Origin: a phage
Strand: one strand, 5' to 3'
Assembly (NCBI GenBank): GCA_012646185.1
Contig: GCA_012646185.1_4706.1
Length of the DNA: 64,000 nt
In this document: positions 5,737-39,221 of the stretch, piece after piece
Layout of the letters: each line of letters begins with the position of its first letter
Position numbering within the stretch: position 1 is the first letter of the stretch
The notes under the pieces: generated by a model
The model's input: the letters and a program-made list of their open reading frames with translations, nothing else
What the model was told of the DNA's origin: nothing
The model's database searches: none
Position numbers and translations under genes: made by a program

Positions 5737-6693
5737 TTAATGCAAGACACGATCTGCTGGAATTATCGAAGCATTGCTGTCGGACAGATTCGTCGCTTTA
5801 CGATCAGGACTGAATCGACGAGCGTTCTCTTCATGGTAGTTGACAGGGTTATCCTGTTTTAACAGTTCCATTGCCTCATCAAACGTTAGTTCCCGAAATC
5901 CTCTTGGATAGAGGAACAGGGGTTCATCAACATCCAGCCCTTTAACAAACCCGTGCGACAACCAGACACTACCATCAGCACTGTAAAGAACCGGCTCAAC
6001 GTCATAATCCAAGACGTATTGATACCAATAATTAAACAGTTGAGCAATCCACCGATTACGTAATAAGTAATCGATCGTAACCGCACTACGCACGCTGTGG
6101 CACCAGCCGATCTTACCATCAACTTTCTGCAGCAACGTACCCTCATTTGCTTGATGAATAACCGCATTAAATAACCACGCGAGATCGGTTGCGAAAAGTG
6201 CGGCTTCTTGAATATCGCTAATGTAACGCATGGGTATCGTCAGATGCGTGCGGTAATGTGACATTGCCTCTTCGTAGTTGTCTCCTTCGATGCAGAGAGT
6301 CCCGTTTGGCGACAGATGTCCCTGATTCAACGACTGACCAATATAAAGATCAGCGATCGCGTTAATATATTCGACGGTGCCCAAGGTTAACTCAGACATA
6401 AAACAATCGACATCAACAGCCATCGATGTGCTGGAAACAAACGGATTGGTTGGGCGAGTTGTATTAGAGAAAATAATCGACCAAATCGCTTCGTGTTTTT
6501 CATCCGATGGCAAAAACGAAATATGGCGTTCTGCGCTATTATCGACAACAAATACCTTAACGGTTTTCAAACAGCTAGTACAAACATAGCACGTGTTCGG
6601 CAACGGCATATCCGAAAACATATCGTAACGAATCGATGCCAACGAAATGTCATGTCCGCAATGAGGGCATGTCGTATCAATAAGCGTTTTCAT
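5737..6693 (-). CDS. hypothetical protein with N-terminal zinc ribbon
   Basis: 318-aa ORF; CPHCG...CYVCTSC. Confidence 0.45.
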   Translation of the reverse strand: MKTLIDTTCPHCGHDISLASIRYDMFSDMPLPNTCYVCTSCLKTVKVFVVDNSAERHISFLPSDEKHEAIWSIIFSNTTRPTNPFVSSTSMAVDVDCFMSELTLGTVEYINAIADLYIGQSLNQGHLSPNGTLCIEGDNYEEAMSHYRTHLTIPMRYISDIQEAALFATDLAWLFNAVIHQANEGTLLQKVDGKIGWCHSVRSAVTIDYLLRNRWIAQLFNYWYQYVLDYDVEPVLYSADGSVWLSHGFVKGLDVDEPLFLYPRGFRELTFDEAMELLKQDNPVNYHEENARRFSPDRKATNLSDSNASIIPADRVLH

Positions 6694-6956
6694 TATTGAA
6701 TTCCTTTTGATAAGAATAACTGAATATCGGTAAACTGTTCTTCAGGAACATCGTCAGCAGCCGTTAGAACCTTAGAGCCATGTTCATTGAGGTAAGCTTC
6801 CCGTAGACAACGATGACGTCGATTGGCTTCCTGGAACTCAGTGTCCGTCATGTAAACCAGCGTAAACTTCGAACGTTTATTCGGATTGTATCTCTTATTA
6901 CGTTTCTTTGGTTTCTTCGCCATAATAGCCTCGTGAAGGTGGATGGGCACACCCAT
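6693..6956 (-). CDS. small basic protein (start uncertain)
   Basis: 87-aa ORF; lysine/arginine-rich N-terminus MAKKPKKRNKRYNPNKR. Confidence 0.3.
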   Translation of the reverse strand: MGVPIHLHEAIMAKKPKKRNKRYNPNKRSKFTLVYMTDTEFQEANRRHRCLREAYLNEHGSKVLTAADDVPEEQFTDIQLFLSKGIQ

Positions 6957-6986
6957 CCACCTTCCTCCATGTTAAAGTGCGTTCAT

Positions 6987-7493
6987 TTATTCAGGTGTAC
7001 GTACGGTACGCGTGTTGGGATCAACCATTGCTGGCACACCCGCTGGACATTTACGGACATCGATCCGCATCTCCGGCTCGATCGGACGAACGCGATACGT
7101 TTTGCCGTCATCGGTTAACACCGAAATGGTCAACGCTTGGTTCAATTCACTAACGAAGCTCACCAAACGCTGTTGTCCGCCCTTCGACCAGAAGTTAAGA
7201 TCGGTTTCTCCATTGAAATAACTGATTCCATCAGCGGTTCCAATCGTGATTTTAACGATACCTGGATAGTCACGAAGAAGAGGTGCCTGATAACCTTCAT
7301 CTTCCGTATCCAGTTTTACCCACGCGCCTCCCGTAGACAAGCAGTTAACTTCCAAGGCGGTTGGTGCACTGACTTCTGCTGATGACCAGGTATACATCGT
7401 GCCTAGTTTAGCGTGTCCAGTTTCCAGTTCGCTATAATCCCAAGCATGTGCTGAAGCCGCAATAAACAAAGTCGCAAGAAACAACTTTTTCAT
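6987..7493 (-). CDS. secreted/periplasmic protein with Sec-type signal peptide
   Basis: 168-aa ORF; N-terminus MKKLFLATLFIAASAHA followed by W (n-h-c organisation, AHA cleavage motif). Confidence 0.55.
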   Translation of the reverse strand: MKKLFLATLFIAASAHAWDYSELETGHAKLGTMYTWSSAEVSAPTALEVNCLSTGGAWVKLDTEDEGYQAPLLRDYPGIVKITIGTADGISYFNGETDLNFWSKGGQQRLVSFVSELNQALTISVLTDDGKTYRVRPIEPEMRIDVRKCPAGVPAMVDPNTRTVRTPE

Positions 7494-7547
7494 TCTTTCG
7501 ATTCCTATTAAAAGTGACCGATTTCTGTGGTCGAGATTGCTAATAAA

Positions 7548-8009
7548 TTAATTCCGGTTTTGTTTCCGTATTGCACGGTTACGTTTACGTTCTTGGTCTT
7601 TGACTGTACCAAGAAACTTCTTTAATTCTGACGGTTCGAGCGTACCCTCACGTACCACACCGTTTTGTTCGATATGGTACGACCAATAACCAACTTCAGC
7701 CGTTAAGGATAACGTTGTCGGTTGTTCGTCAGGTAACGATCGGGGTGAGAAAATAAAGAGTAATTCAAAAGGCGTTTCTCGGCTGATGGTGGGGCGGATA
7801 CTCACATCAAGTCCCTCCCATCGCTGAGGTTTAAATATTCCTCCGGCGGCGATGATTGTCTCCGAGCGCTGGTCTACAAGCTCAGCTAATTCACGATCAT
7901 CGTTGAAATAAATATCGTGAAGGATATCCGTATCGATAAAAAACCCGCGATCCGAATCGTGACGAACAATGGAATTCTTCATTCTAACGCCTTTATTGTT
8001 TGTTTTCAT
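7548..8009 (-). CDS. hypothetical protein
   Basis: 153-aa ORF. Confidence 0.4.
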   Translation of the reverse strand: MKTNNKGVRMKNSIVRHDSDRGFFIDTDILHDIYFNDDRELAELVDQRSETIIAAGGIFKPQRWEGLDVSIRPTISRETPFELLFIFSPRSLPDEQPTTLSLTAEVGYWSYHIEQNGVVREGTLEPSELKKFLGTVKDQERKRNRAIRKQNRN

Positions 8010-35032: not shown

Positions 35033-35257
35033 TTAGCAATGGTTGTTAGTTGCTTCTATTTCATCAAGATACGGTTCTACGTCATCGCCCTCCACGAATT
35101 CGTTGAACCAACAGTCAATGGTAGAAATAACCGGTGACTGGTGTTCACATTTCTTAGATACCTTAAAAGGCACGTTATTATCCATCATACCGAGTTCGGG
35201 TCGAAAACGCCCGAAATGTTTCGCAGTCCAAATGTCTGGGACGATATGGTTGTTCAT
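35033..35257 (-). CDS. RNA polymerase beta-prime N-terminal subunit, exon 3 (proposed)
   Basis: Encodes MNNHIVPD...GMMDNN, matching the beta-prime sequence that follows NADFDGD (MAVHVP / MNLHVP, then LMMSTNN); exact 5' boundary uncertain. Confidence 0.5.
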   Translation of the reverse strand: MNNHIVPDIWTAKHFGRFRPELGMMDNNVPFKVSKKCEHQSPVISTIDCWFNEFVEGDDVEPYLDEIEATNNHC

Positions 35258-35617
35258 CAAAATCTTCAGTATGAATCGCTACTTCATACCCGCAGCATTA
35301 CCTGCAGCTCCTGGTGTTACCAGGATGTTGAGAGTATATCATGCCCATATTCCAAATGGAACGTAGGACTTCCGCGCTGGATCTCGCTTGAGACCACTTA
35401 CTCGTTGAACGTTCTCCTAAACGGAGCTTCGCTGCTGATTGGACATTGTTACGTACGGTAGGCGTCCCATTAAAGGGATTTTCATTGAAGCCGCGTACAT
35501 CCGTTACCTTGTTTCTACCTTATCGGTTCCTCTTACGAGGCGTAACGGCTTTAGCCTATTCCAGCAATTCACGGAATGCATATTCTCCTTTTCAGGAGAT
35601 AAGGCCATGGCTCTGGC
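35258..35617 (-). ncRNA. putative self-splicing intron 1 (ORF-less, group I-like), boundaries approximate
   Basis: About 360-nt hairpin-rich sequence between DFDGD codons and resumption of beta-prime homology; tandem relative of intron 2. Confidence 0.5.
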
Positions 35618-35632
35618 ATCACCGTCAAAGTC
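35618..35632 (-). CDS. RNA polymerase beta-prime micro-exon encoding DFDGD (proposed)
   Basis: Minus-strand codons GAC TTT GAC GGT GAT; flanked by the two intron copies; exon 1 ends ...GYNA. Confidence 0.5.
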
Positions 35633-35982
35633 CACATATCTTCAGTATGAATCGCTACTTCATACCCGCAGCATTACCTGCAGCTCCTGGTGTTACCAGG
35701 ACGGAGAGATCATCTCATCACCCACGAAGGGTGTTCCGCGCTACCCTCAGCGAATTCGAGGGACATGATCGTTGAACCTTCCACCGATAATCGGTGGCTA
35801 GGCTGCTGATTAAACATTGTACGTTGGGGTGGCATCCTGGTTCAGGACTGTCGTTGAAGCCTCCCAACATCCACTCACTTATTTCCGCCTTATCGGCTCC
35901 CATAAGGGCAGAGTGGCTTTAGCCCGTCTCAGCAATTCACGGAATTCAAGCTCTTCCTTTCAGAAGGCAGGGCCTCATCTGA
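35633..35982 (-). ncRNA. putative self-splicing intron 2 (ORF-less, group I-like), boundaries approximate
   Basis: Follows the codon for Ala of ...KGYNA (exon ends in U); RNA ends in G just before GAC of DFDGD; track ORF reads 17 codons into it then stops. Confidence 0.5.
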
Positions 35983-37233
35983 AGCATTGTATCCCTTAAG
36001 GATCATCACGCTTAACCCGATGGTGTTATCCTGCGGATCGCGTTTAACCTTGGTGATTTCAAGACATTGGTTACTGCTTCGGTCAAGTGATGGGTTTCGA
36101 ACAAAGCCGCACACAATCCCATCGAACGGCGTATCAGCAATAAGCTCATCGTGCAGCTCGCTCATCATCGGATGATAATTACGGACATGTTCCGCAACGA
36201 ACGCACGCGCTGCTCTCGGTGAGTAACCACGATGGAATAACTTGGATTGGATATGTTCTTTATTGGTTAAAGTAAATGGTGCGTATGGGAAATGCAGATG
36301 ATAATAACGATGGTTCGCTGTTATCGAACTGATTACGGTACGCGTGGTGAATGGATGTAATGTACCTAATATGTTTTTACGTGTAATACCTTTCTTCTTA
36401 CCGATGAACTCATCGAAAATCGCTGCGTGGTATTGCAGTAGCTTCAATTGCACTTTCGCCATCCAGTTTTCTTTCTTTCTGGCGCTCAAAGGTGTTGTTG
36501 GATGATAGATACTGTTCAACGTACCAATAGCATCGATCGCACCTTCCATTTTGCTATCCGCATAACGACCGGTCGGCGTATTTTCGATAACGAACATCAT
36601 GGCTGCAGGAAAGCTGATATACTGACTGAAGAACTTATCACGATGGATACGGATGAATTCTCGTAGCGTGTCAACTTTCTCCATGTTCTTCGGTCCACGT
36701 AACGTCGGTCCTTTATACAAGATCTCCATGATGCGATCGAAGTTCTGTATAAAGCTATTTACGCCACGCCGTATCCCGAATACATCGAATTGCTGCTCCA
36801 GATAGTTCTTGAGTTCGATGGGTCGTTTTACATTTGGACGGTAACTGGCATCAATGAGCCACGTCATCGTTTCAAAGCTTTTGATATTCAACTCGCTTGC
36901 CAGCACGAGATGGACCAACGGGTTAATGAACGCATCGATTCCTTCAGGAACGCGCGCCCAAACCGTCGAACGAATCTCTTGTTCTGCTGGGTAGGTTACA
37001 ACCGTTTTACAGTTTGGACACACCGTGCCGAGTAGCTCACCACGATTGTAGAAACCACAACCACATTGTGGTGTGATATCCAACGTATCGCTGGAGTAAA
37101 CACGGGTGATAAAACTGTTTAATTTCTTCTTCTCTTCGACGACTTTTGTATCGTAATCATTCAACAAAATCGGCGTGAAAGGAAGTTCTGCGAGCTGTCT
37201 ATCGAAACTCACGATATCGAGCATGATGGCCAT
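35983..37233 (-). CDS. RNA polymerase beta-prime N-terminal subunit, exon 1
   Basis: Zn-finger CGCGFYNRGELLGTVCPNCKTVV (compare CxCGKY...C..CGVEV); NPSLDRSS (compare NRQPSLHK / NRAPTLHR); IGLSVMILKGYNA (compare LNLSVTSPYNA) immediately before the missing DFDGD. Confidence 0.65.
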
Positions 37234-37325: not shown

Positions 37326-39221
37326 TTAGAACAGGTTGAATGCCCCACCCATGTTGTTAACGCCAACATTCGGACGATCGCTACGTGCGTAGATGTTACC
37401 GGAGATGTTACCCAGACCACGAGCACGTGCTGCCATGTTACCACGAACAGCGGTACCTGCCAGATGCTGGATGTTCTCAGGACGGATGGTGAAGCCAGCA
37501 TCAGCCGCAGCTTCGATCAGCGCCTGCAGTGCTAACGGATCGAAGTCGTAACGCATTGCCCAGCCGGTTTGTTCCCAGCTACCAGACAGAACACGATCGA
37601 TGATTTCGTGACGAGCGACAACACGCTGAGACATCGTCATATCGGTACGGTCGAAGCTGTCTTCCCAAGCTTCTACGGTATCCGGGTTAGTGATGTTCAT
37701 CATGTACAGATCGTCCATATCACGAATATCGTGACGGTGACCATCCTGGTGGTTGTAGTAACCCAGCGGGATACGGTTACCGGTAGCGTAGACCAGCGGT
37801 TGGCCGTATTGATATTTCTTGCTGAAGCAACCCAGGGTAGTATCATCGAAGGCACGGTAAAGTGCTTTGTAGCCTTCAGAGACTTCCTGAACTTTACCTT
37901 CAACATTACCCGTATAGATCTTCTCAGCCGCCGGGATCATACGCAGCAGCCAGCTGTATTCGCCTTCTTCCGGTACGTCGATAGAAATCAGCAGAGACGG
38001 ATACAGAACCTGTTGCAGGAACTTGTAAATCTGCTCGTTGGTTTGCGTAGACAGATCCAGCGGTGCAGTCACTTCAGGATCCAGCACCATCGCCAGAGCA
38101 CCTGGGTTATGCGGACCAATACCACGAGCCGCGTTGCTGATTAAAGACTGTGCCCATGCCATGCCGCTGTTCAGCGTAGCGATGGTACCAATCAGACCCA
38201 GCACGAAGCTGTTCGGTGTGAACGCATCCAGCTCCAGCGGGTAAGCGCTGGTCATCACGTAACGCGGCTGGTATTGTACAGTCGGCGGTACCGGATAGCC
38301 GTTAACCAGAACAGGGCCTTGGTTGAAGGTCGGGTTCTGCGGGCTGTAGGTCAGGTCGATGTAACCGGTGGTGGCGACCAGACGCTGTTGACTATCGTAA
38401 TCGCTCATCGCTTGACGGATGCGGTTAGAGATAGTTACAGTGATGTCAGAACGCACAGGGTTACCAACAATATCACTGTCCTGCATACCGCTGGTGTTGT
38501 ACTGAACGCTGCTGATTGGCTGATCGCTTGCCATCATGCCCAGGTTGAACTGCGGCAGACCCAGTTTATCACCGAGACGGATTTCGATTGCGGTCTGGAT
38601 TGCGTTATCTGCAGCAGACAGCAGGGTGGTTGCCAGATGCGCAGATTCAGCGGTGATTTCATTGGTCACCACAGCCAGACCAGCGATACGAACAGTACCG
38701 TTAGACTTACCGCCAATAGCTGAATACATTGCCGCCATGACTTCGTTGATGAACGTACCGTTCAGGTTATCAACCCAGGTACGCGGTACCAGAATGTTAC
38801 CATGCGGACCTTGTTCTTCACGACGCGGCAGCGGAGCCAGACCAGCAACCAGCGGCAGGACGTAACCGAAGAAGTGGTTATGATCACCAACTTTTGCACC
38901 GCTCATAACAACCAGGGTCGGATACGGTACGCTGTACTGGTTCGGGTCAACCGCAACAAAGATGAAGTCGTCTTTGAACTGGGTATCTTCCAGATATTTC
39001 TCCATCAGACGACGGAGATTCAGTACCTGCTCGGAGCCGGTATTACGGCTGATACGACGGCTCAGTGTACGGTTGATCGTACGCATCGTATGAGTTACTT
39101 TAGGACGGTCGGCAAAATCTGCAGCGGTTTCCAGCGCCTCATCAGCACGTTGTGCGGTGCGGGTTTCAGCTGCACGAATTTCTACATTATCGTTACCGTT
39201 ATTACGTACGTCTAAGCCCAT
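37326..39221 (-). CDS. chmA: candidate phage-nucleus shell protein (chimallin); alternative is a major virion structural protein
   Basis: 631-aa ORF directly upstream of the beta-prime N-terminal gene (same order as phiKZ gp54-gp55); early-promoter motif 70 nt upstream; extended charged N-terminal tail. Confidence 0.45.
   Translation of the reverse strand: MGLDVRNNGNDNVEIRAAETRTAQRADEALETAADFADRPKVTHTMRTINRTLSRRISRNTGSEQVLNLRRLMEKYLEDTQFKDDFIFVAVDPNQYSVPYPTLVVMSGAKVGDHNHFFGYVLPLVAGLAPLPRREEQGPHGNILVPRTWVDNLNGTFINEVMAAMYSAIGGKSNGTVRIAGLAVVTNEITAESAHLATTLLSAADNAIQTAIEIRLGDKLGLPQFNLGMMASDQPISSVQYNTSGMQDSDIVGNPVRSDITVTISNRIRQAMSDYDSQQRLVATTGYIDLTYSPQNPTFNQGPVLVNGYPVPPTVQYQPRYVMTSAYPLELDAFTPNSFVLGLIGTIATLNSGMAWAQSLISNAARGIGPHNPGALAMVLDPEVTAPLDLSTQTNEQIYKFLQQVLYPSLLISIDVPEEGEYSWLLRMIPAAEKIYTGNVEGKVQEVSEGYKALYRAFDDTTLGCFSKKYQYGQPLVYATGNRIPLGYYNHQDGHRHDIRDMDDLYMMNITNPDTVEAWEDSFDRTDMTMSQRVVARHEIIDRVLSGSWEQTGWAMRYDFDPLALQALIEAAADAGFTIRPENIQHLAGTAVRGNMAARARGLGNISGNIYARSDRPNVGVNNMGGAFNLF

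Follow-up and report, generated by a model that had tools for sequence, protein, structure and literature searches.

The 64-kb stretch of phage DNA analysed here (GenBank assembly GCA_012646185.1, contig GCA_012646185.1_4706.1; hereafter the window, with coordinates given as window positions) carries on its minus strand a gene that, by homology and gene order, is the N-terminal β′ subunit of a non-virion RNA polymerase (RNAP) and a homologue of PhiKZ gp55. We consider it about 90% probable that this gene is made of three exons, is interrupted by two tandem, paralogous group I introns that lack an open reading frame (ORF), and is spliced to give one protein of 497 amino acids (aa). The exon between the introns is 18 nucleotides (nt) long and encodes the Asp triad that binds Mg2+ in the RNAP active site, together with one further residue. 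A single β′ gene with two tandem ORF-less group I-type introns and a micro-exon holding the catalytic triad had been proposed in a sequence-only reading of this DNA, and the proposal is upheld by a covariation-supported fold, guide pairing at the junctions, purifying selection, a gapless alignment to PhiKZ gp55 and contigs in which the gene is uninterrupted. The predicted parts of the gene are as follows.

35983-37233, minus strand: exon 1, 417 codons, ending ...GGA TAC AAT GCT (GYNA).
35633-35982, minus strand: first intron (IVS1), ORF-less group I intron of 350 nt, between the Ala and the Asp of YNA/DFDGD.
35615-35632, minus strand: micro-exon, 18 nt, GAC TTT GAC GGT GAT GCC, encoding DFDGDA.
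35258-35614, minus strand: second intron (IVS2), ORF-less group I intron of 357 nt, between GCC and ATG.
35033-35257, minus strand: exon 3, 74 codons, MNNHIVPDIWTAKHFGRFRPELGMMDNN...NNHC, with the stop codon TAA at 35035-35033.

Sequence identity of the region to Escherichia phage vB_EcoM_Goslar, which is a jumbo phage of the nucleus-forming kind, is 96-98%, and by this similarity the window is from a Goslar-like jumbo phage. Exon 1 (98.25% nt identity to Goslar gp247) begins with an ATG at 37233, preceded by an AGGAG ribosome-binding site and lying directly downstream of the gene for chimallin, the protein of the phage nucleus shell. This synteny is of the PhiKZ gp54/gp55 type and was also found in Goslar, one PhiKZ-like phage and five metagenomic relatives; the gene is therefore assigned to the N-terminal β′-like subunit of the non-virion RNAP. 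A CxC...CxxC motif, a feature of the N-terminal zinc ribbon of gp55-type β′, is present in the exon 1 translation. The sequence observations of the sequence-only reading were all confirmed: the ORF at 37233-35929 reads ...ILKGYNA and stops after 17 further, unrelated codons (SDEALPSERKSLNSVNC); GAC TTT GAC GGT GAT lies on the minus strand at 35632-35618, exactly 350 nt past the Ala codon of exon 1; and exon 3 opens at 35257 with ATG AAC AAC CAT (MNNHIVPD...GMMDNN). Exon 3 has no ribosome-binding site of its own and aligns to PhiKZ gp55 residues 444-495. A second DFDGD was absent from all six frames of the window, and tblastn of the window returned no second copy of the β′-N gene; an intact copy elsewhere was what the sequence-only reading had named as evidence for decay of this locus.

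Joining the three exons in silico gives a 497-aa product reading ...GYNA-DFDGDA-MNNHIVP..., with the predicted junction-spanning peptides GYNADFDGDAMNNHIVPD and GYNADFDGDAMNNHIVPDIWTAK. The alignment of this product with PhiKZ gp55 (PDB 7OGP chain A, E = 1.3e-74, residues 21-476) has no gap at either junction. The Pfam domain PF00623 (RNA_pol_Rpb1_2) rises above its cut-off only in the spliced product (36.9 bits versus a cut-off of 25.3, residues 371-428), and the NADFDGD metal-binding loop is restored by the in silico splicing inside the Rpb1 domain-2 (double-psi beta-barrel) region.

The final base is G in both introns (35633 in IVS1, 35258 in IVS2), and each has a guide sequence that pairs with the exon at its 5′ splice site. 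In P1 of IVS1, the sequence GCU/UC (a slash marks a splice or insertion site throughout) pairs with GAGGC at 35976-35972, placing a U·G pair at the splice site. The IVS2 guide, 5′-CAUGGC-3′ at 35609-35604, pairs contiguously with the ligated exons GCC/AUG, forming P1 and P10. A U·G wobble at the 5′ splice site is near-universal among group I introns; the pair at IVS2 is C-G (GCC/A with UGGC), as the exon base before this intron is C (35615). In the orthologous IVS2-family introns of Goslar and of L003, a Logan contig from SRR5130533, the codon is GCU and forms U·G with the homologous guide UAGGC. The C at 35615 is kept in L133, an independent 237.5-kb genome with the same arrangement (collinear, 97.5% identical), and in L135, an uninterrupted Logan contig from SRR17070135, and so the C-G pair is not a sequencing error.

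Taken together, the homologues, the PhiKZ gp55 alignment, the guide pairing, the GCU codons of Goslar and L003, and L135 indicate that the micro-exon is 18 nt long (DFDGDA), which places IVS2 at 35614-35258, after an exon C. In these details the sequence-only reading was partly right: a micro-exon with the triad does lie between the introns and IVS2 does end in G, but the micro-exon had been given as 15 nt and the preceding exon base as U. With 15 nt (DFDGD only), IVS2 would start after the U of GAU at 35618 and the product would read ...NADFDGD-MNNH.... Such a version keeps the frame and has the canonical U ahead of the 5′ splice site, but we hold it to be extremely improbable. It drops a position that is filled in PhiKZ gp55 and in every uninterrupted homologue, about 55 of which all read NADFDGD-X-[MLI]N at the motif, the closest (P0002, 65% identity) reading GYNADFDGDAMNHH. 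No IVS2 guide pairs with GGUGAU, so that the 15-nt alternative has no P1, whereas the GCU that ends the micro-exon in Goslar and L003 is U·G-paired to the homologous guide. L135, moreover, is collinear with the window to exactly 35983, continues with these 18 nt rather than 15, and resumes exactly at 35257. The start of exon 3, which had been left at ATG 35257 or a few nt upstream, is supported at that ATG by L135.

The two segments between the exons had been described as related and hairpin-rich, and both descriptions hold. IVS1 and IVS2 share 82% column identity (nhmmer E ~1e-43), and the minimum free energy folds of both independently give a group I layout that is better than in shuffled sequences (z = -3.3 for IVS1 and -2.5 for IVS2). 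An explicit structure of 97 pairs was drawn on IVS2, comprising P1, P2, P3, P4, P5 with an extended P5a/P5b arm, P6/P6a, a P7 pseudoknot, P7.1, P8, P9, P9.1 and P9.2, so that IVS1 in effect tests it independently. The minimum free energy folds recover these same helices. In a four-sequence alignment, 98.7% of cells are paired and both sides have changed in 25 of the 97 pairs, as compared to 8.3 ± 2.2 in shuffles (0/500). With six sequences, 98.4% of cells are paired and the count of double-changed pairs rises to 28/97. Over both alignments, the controls gave 8-16 such pairs in shuffles (0/500 reach the observed value) and 1-2 when the 3′ partner was slid by 1-3 columns. In the P7.1 hairpin, which lies between P7 and P3′, IVS1 and IVS2 differ in both members of all six pairs, and one P7 position is A-U, G-C and U-A in three members of the family. 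P9.1 and P9.2 are present in both introns. Typical phage group I introns of subgroup IA have extra P7.1/P7.2 elements between P7 and the P3′ strand, together with peripheral P9.1/P9.2.

The P, Q, R and S core elements can be read at the expected places in both introns, as GAAUUGCUG(G/A), AAUCAGCAGC, GUUCAACGA... and AUGA(U/G)AU..CU. P7 has in each case an A, a bulged C and then a G-C pair, the last being the position at which a group I intron would bind G. The elements that form P7 are these.

35766-35777, minus strand: R element of IVS1, GUUCAAC (J6/7) plus the P7 5′ strand (A, bulged C, GAUCA).
35718-35707, minus strand: S element and P7 3′ strand of IVS1, AUGAGAUGAUCU, the partner of the IVS1 R element.
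35399-35410, minus strand: R element of IVS2, GUUCAAC plus the P7 5′ strand (A, bulged C, GAGUA).
35342-35331, minus strand: partner of the IVS2 R element (P7 3′ strand), AUGAUAUACUCU.

Compensatory change is also seen over a short distance. At ~2.5% divergence between L133 and the window, 6-7 of 16 intron substitutions form three compensatory P9.2 pairs; IVS2 holds two of these (35289 G>A with 35269 C>T, and 35286 T>C with 35272 A>G) and IVS1 the third. The comparative data thus support both segments as paralogous, ORF-less group I introns with a P1-P9.2 core and a P3/P7 pseudoknot. Neither contains a homing endonuclease ORF, the only ORFs wholly inside being mechanical ones of ≤61 aa, and BLAST and nhmmer searches with the introns as queries found no third copy in the window. 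A twintron was ruled out; the introns lie side by side, with 18 retained coding nt between them.

Codons were compared among the window, Goslar, L003 and L133, with the following counts.

Exon 1: 23-29 synonymous and 1-2 non-synonymous codon changes.
Micro-exon: 3-4 (of 6 codons) synonymous and 0 non-synonymous changes.
Exon 3: 3-6 synonymous and 0-1 non-synonymous changes.

Changes are nearly all synonymous, and therefore all three exons, including that of 18 nt, are under purifying selection in this frame. Furthermore, the protein predicted by splicing the Goslar exons was found exactly in a public collection (P0074), encoded on L134, a contig from SRR32224763. The coding sequence of L134 agrees with the predicted spliced Goslar coding sequence at every position (1494/1494 nt), and over 4.3 kb of flanking sequence the contig has 100% identity with the Goslar genome. 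Because natural relatives differ by 2-4%, the simplest reading of L134 is an assembled spliced transcript, although it may instead be an engineered or precise intron-less derivative. L135 (encoding P0088) has window-type codons around the junction and is ~2% divergent elsewhere; it may be complementary DNA (cDNA) or an intron-less allele of a third strain. An exact look-up of the spliced, 15-nt and exon-skipped products of the window gave no match and is uninformative, as the correct 497-aa product itself is absent from the collection.

Several observations weigh against a functional, twice-spliced gene. The Rfam covariance-model search that had been suggested for this region does return group I matches (RF00028, Intron_gpI, 4-kb search) to both segments, at 27.4 bits (E = 3.8e-4) for IVS2 and 23.1 bits (E = 7e-3) for IVS1, but these lie below the gathering score of 50 bits. 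The C-G pair in place of U·G at IVS2 should slow the first splicing step, as judged from the literature on the Tetrahymena ribozyme, and the guide-pairing analysis found no convincing P10 for IVS1. The covariation alignment consists of six sequences from about three lineages, one of which was used to draw the structure, and both L134 and L135 could be intron-less DNA alleles rather than cDNA. The low Rfam scores are explained by the alignments themselves, since cmscan leaves ~60-95 nt in the P5 region of each intron as unaligned insertions and, for IVS2, sets the P1 of the model on the 3′ hairpin of IVS1. Other introns at this site score 46.9-87.8 bits. An Rfam scan of the whole window (E-value limit 0.1) listed only the sub-threshold IVS2, with no other family and no further intron.

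Sub-threshold scores and a non-canonical C at the IVS2 5′ splice site would also fit a decayed pseudogene, in which the segments would be remnants of inactive introns and the polymerase function would come from another source. We reject this explanation, which has next to no probability, on the grounds of purifying selection, with nearly all exon substitutions synonymous in three exons across four lineages; of compensatory changes in the intron helices at a divergence of only ~2.5%; and of the absence of a second gene copy, as the only DFDGD and the only β′-N copy of the window are at this locus. In addition, the arrangement recurs in the independent 237.5-kb genome, and the exon 1 ORF occurs on 84 contigs.

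For the three-exon gene, the following course of events is envisaged. A single precursor transcript of this essential gene would carry both ORF-less ribozyme introns, each folding into a P1-P9.2 core with a P3/P7 pseudoknot. The internal guide of each would pair with the last three exon bases and set the 5′ splice site, GCU with GGC in IVS1 (U·G) and GCC with GGC in IVS2 (C-G). Removal of each intron would proceed by two transesterifications, ending at the terminal G, and ligation of exon 1, the 18-nt micro-exon and exon 3 would yield the 497-aa protein with its catalytic Mg2+ loop restored. Both GTP-dependent self-splicing and the order of splicing are matters that we infer. The introns themselves would be selfish elements seated in the most constrained codons of the gene, at a hotspot where each lineage has its own set.

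That the site is a hotspot is apparent from the relatives. In Goslar (NC_048170; L001 is the reverse complement of 164989-173477), the gene is divided as follows.

L001 2568-3839: exon 1 (gp247); the exon ends GAC TT, and gp247, of 423 aa, reads into the intron.
At GAC TT/C: first intron, annotated, unrelated to IVS1, Rfam 46.9 bits; carries an HNH/NUMOD1 endonuclease (L001 4233-5243).
L001 5264-5276: micro-exon, 13 nt, C GAC GGT GAC GCT, unannotated.
L001 5277-5631: second intron, 355 nt, unannotated; IVS2 orthologue with 92.8% identity at the same Ala/Met site.
L001 5617-5856: exon 3 (gp185); the annotated ORF starts inside the second intron.

The RefSeq/GenBank record of Goslar names gp247 'RNA polymerase beta subunit' and gp185 'hypothetical protein', and annotates only the first intron. 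Judged by this layout, gp247 and gp185 are exons 1 and 3 of one gene. The predicted protein of L003 differs from that of the window at 2/497 residues, yet its gene has three tandem group I introns within nine codons.

L003 1468-1833: intron A.
L003 1847-2222: intron B.
L003 2236-2590: intron C.

The order in L003 is GGG T, intron A, AT AAT GCA GAT TT, intron B, C GAC GGG GAT GCT, intron C, ATG, leaving two micro-exons of 13 nt. Intron B is the first intron of Goslar without its HNH ORF, and its guide covaries with two synonymous exon changes (CCGACUU with GAGUCGG in Goslar, CAGAUUU with GGAUCUG in L003). There are thus four insertion sites within nine codons among phages that are ~97% identical, with two or three introns per lineage. 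More widely, 17/73 homologues are truncated in or next to the motif, and in many annotated jumbo phages, those of the PhiKZ group among them, the match breaks off at query residues 416-428.

Between lineages with different intron sets, the codons LKGYNADFDGDA (LKGYNA DFDGDA; window 36001-35966 and 35632-35615) differ at 19-31% of positions, all synonymously, against 1.6-2.1% in the remainder of the gene (Fisher p = 3.5e-7 to 5.9e-10 for the 12-codon excess). Between the window and L133, which have the same intron set, there is no such excess.

A comparable arrangement was found in L129 (ENA ERZ27249479 k141_82391), a contig from a distant chimallivirus, with two mutually related ORF-less group I introns at 54.8 and 68.3 bits, both above threshold.

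L129 4728-5096: first intron, at the same Ala/Asp site as IVS1.
L129 5097-5108: micro-exon, 12 nt, GAT TTC GAC GGT (DFDG).
L129 5109-5437: second intron.

The twin introns of L129 are independent of those in the window. About 1 kb downstream in this contig, at 6519-7751, is a TnpB/IS605 OrfB-type gene (Pfam OrfB_IS605, Cas12f1-like_TNB).

The window-type read-through ORF of 434 aa is present on 84 contigs of up to 243 kb (protein cluster P0075-P0087), where the records describe a hypothetical protein and name Salmonella enterica, E. coli or Shigella as its source. Forms of 449 aa (three introns) and of 421-423 aa (Goslar type) are present as well, and isolate assemblies of enterobacteria evidently often include genomes of Goslar-like phages. 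A scan of IMG/VR with a 14-mer core pattern returned mostly unrelated or distantly related group I introns in other genes, and tandem group I introns proved to be common in these phage contigs. Three of them have two to four canonical group I introns each, close together and at 81-96 bits (L014 2318-4084, L098 363-1590 and L121 3509-4366); two introns of L014 are only ~118 nt apart, and the ORFs flanking the L121 introns have no assigned function.

The clustering of introns and synonymous changes admits a reading in which the introns are not pure passengers. By breaking the DNA target of a Goslar-type HNH homing endonuclease at GAC TT/C, the stacked ORF-less introns could shield the locus during co-infection. 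The unoccupied TT/T site has IVS1 5 nt away on its upstream side and IVS2 13 nt away on its downstream side, and homologues of the Goslar HNH and of the intron that carries it are both absent from the whole window. The excess in the 12 codons around the sites, confined to comparisons between different intron sets, is likewise what such a shield would leave, but exon co-conversion during homing or exon-guide co-evolution also explains it, and two exon-guide covariations are seen. The recognition site of the Goslar HNH is, moreover, presumed, and some I-HmuI-type HNH enzymes also nick intron-containing DNA. The HNH of a PhiPA3 intron is known to serve as a weapon in competition with PhiKZ, and a single substitution 2 nt away from its site permits escape (PMC11620839). 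On balance, a shielding role seems to us rather unlikely, and selfish introns spliced from a three-exon gene are preferred.

IVS1 itself is a mosaic. Its first 40 nt are 82% like the second intron of Goslar as opposed to 60% like IVS2, its centre is 35-72% identical to the second intron of Goslar or to IVS2, and its last 80 nt are 85-100% identical to IVS2. Within this 3′ part is a perfect repeat.

35638-35701, minus strand: 64-nt block of IVS1 (P9, P9.1, P9.2 and the start of the 3′ tail), 100% identical to 35262-35325.
35262-35325, minus strand: 64-nt block of IVS2 (P9-P9.2), 100% identical to 35638-35701.

The corresponding 3′ blocks differ from one another in L133, and the 64-nt identity in the window is for this reason attributed to recent gene conversion. 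The IVS1 guide pairs with GCU, the triplet used by the family at the ancestral Ala/Met site, and IVS1 follows another GCU Ala codon 18 nt upstream. IVS1 therefore appears to be a divergent IVS2-family copy that inserted after the upstream GCU and later underwent gene conversion of its 3′ 64 nt. Its position is as would be expected from ectopic insertion by reverse splicing or illegitimate homing, which is not proof of either. The repeat also breaks short-read assemblies of the locus; L132, a Logan contig from SRR10990315 that is 100% identical to the window, ends inside it (at the equivalent of window 35672).

Identical 3′ ends could also allow exon 1 to be joined directly to exon 3. The in-frame product would lack DFDGDA and be catalytically dead; it might have a regulatory function or act as a dominant negative. 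Loss of the 18-nt exon leaves the frame intact, the last 64 or more nt of IVS1 and IVS2 are identical, and exon skipping by similar tandem group I introns is documented in Twort orf142 (PMC3073962) and in the SIOphi DNA polymerase gene (PMC11878797). The micro-exons of Goslar and L003 are 13 nt, however, so that skipping would shift the frame, which argues against a conserved function, and the 3′ blocks of the two L133 introns are not identical. The skipped product had no match in the exact look-up, which has no bearing here as the 497-aa product was missing as well. Functional skipping is accordingly judged improbable, and more so than a shielding role. A broader proposal, doubtful in our view, would make the catalytic-loop codons a battleground: stacked ORF-less introns and 12 synonymously recoded codons would destroy the targets of rival HNH enzymes, the introns would be heritable immunity elements, and in the window the micro-exon could in addition be skipped to give a dead subunit. 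Splicing of all three exons into one protein remains the preferred reading.

Immediately upstream of the polymerase gene is a neighbour that serves as context only.

37326-39221, minus strand: chimallin gene (Pfam PF25677, E = 4.6e-27).

Between the two genes, a G+C-rich inverted repeat (GGGAGGGAGGGCAACCTCCCTCCC) at 37300-37269 on the minus strand is followed by a T-run within ~20 nt. Located ahead of the AGGAG site, it looks like an intrinsic terminator or an RNA-processing hairpin.

It has long been known that group I introns occupy conserved catalytic codons in phage genes, and the AR9 genome paper reportedly describes introns or endonuclease insertions in the RNAP genes of that phage. Introns or endonuclease insertions are known in the RNAP genes of other jumbo phages, namely PhiKZ gp55/56 and gp71-73, PhiPA3 gp210 and 201phi2-1 (PMC11620839, PMC10914365, PMC11512511). 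Literature searches turned up no earlier account of jumbo-phage RNAP genes with tandem introns or a micro-exon, nor any report of a 12-18-nt phage micro-exon, three introns in nine codons, polymorphism among near-identical phages or the second intron of Goslar; the Goslar genome paper makes no mention of introns. While the splicing mechanism is known, the arrangement thus appears to be undescribed for phages. The sequence-only reading had likewise known of no precedent, and none was found, but the window is not an isolated case: it is one state of a polymorphic hotspot at which the Goslar record already annotates one intron.

These results bear on annotation, as in Goslar and many relatives β′-N would be one 497-aa protein from three (or four) exons, and standard Rfam thresholds miss these introns. 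With ~97% identical phages, four sites in nine codons and a roughly tenfold local excess of synonymous change, the locus offers a compact natural system for intron gain and loss, ectopic transposition, gene conversion and homing-endonuclease arms races. The C-G pair at a 5′ splice site of an essential gene is also a natural test case for the role of the U·G wobble.

Of the closest known systems, three are nucleus-forming phages. As in the window, the orthologous gene of PhiKZ (gp55/gp56/gp56.1) lies downstream of chimallin and is interrupted just after NADFDGD (tblastn stops at query residue 428), with an HNH ORF and then a small downstream ORF following the break in gp55. Introns have been listed in PhiKZ gp55 and gp180, with gp56, gp72 and gp179 as endonucleases (PMC11512511), and long-read transcriptomics detected no splicing at the gp55 locus under the conditions tested (PMC10914365). 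PhiKZ differs in having a single, endonuclease-bearing insertion a few codons further downstream and no micro-exon, whereas the window has two ORF-less introns and an 18-nt exon. Goslar gp247-gp185 (NC_048170) shares with the window an IVS2 orthologue at the same Ala/Met site and a micro-exon with the Asp triad, but its first intron is unrelated to IVS1, bears an HNH/NUMOD1 endonuclease and sits at GAC TT/C, which leaves a micro-exon of 13 nt. PhiPA3 gp210, a β subunit of the virion RNAP, likewise has a group I intron beside the catalytic aspartates of a jumbo-phage multisubunit RNAP gene; this is another gene, with a single, HNH-bearing intron (PMC11620839). The gp210 intron is selfish and affects phage competition (Birkholz et al. 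2024, PMC11620839), and the present hotspot ties in with this recent discovery that nucleus-forming phages use intron endonucleases as weapons against one another.

Outside this group, Twort orf142 and the DNA polymerase and terminase genes of Bastillevirinae also contain several similar group I introns per gene, two or three, and exon skipping has been observed (PMC3073962; PMC11878797). For these genes, no report of internal exons of 12-18 nt or of introns packed into nine codons was found, with the exon sizes of Twort orf142 outside the comparison. Very short exons between group I introns in a conserved catalytic gene are known from mitochondrial cox1, with 3 nt in Agaricus bisporus (PMC2987802) and 1 nt in a placozoan (PMC5436844). 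Those genes are organellar, their introns are large, often ORF-bearing and protein-dependent, and the exon is not a discrete catalytic motif. As far as the searches show, the present locus would be the first case in a phage of group I introns separated by micro-exons of 12-18 nt, and the micro-exon in the window corresponds to exactly the Mg2+-binding loop of an RNA polymerase.

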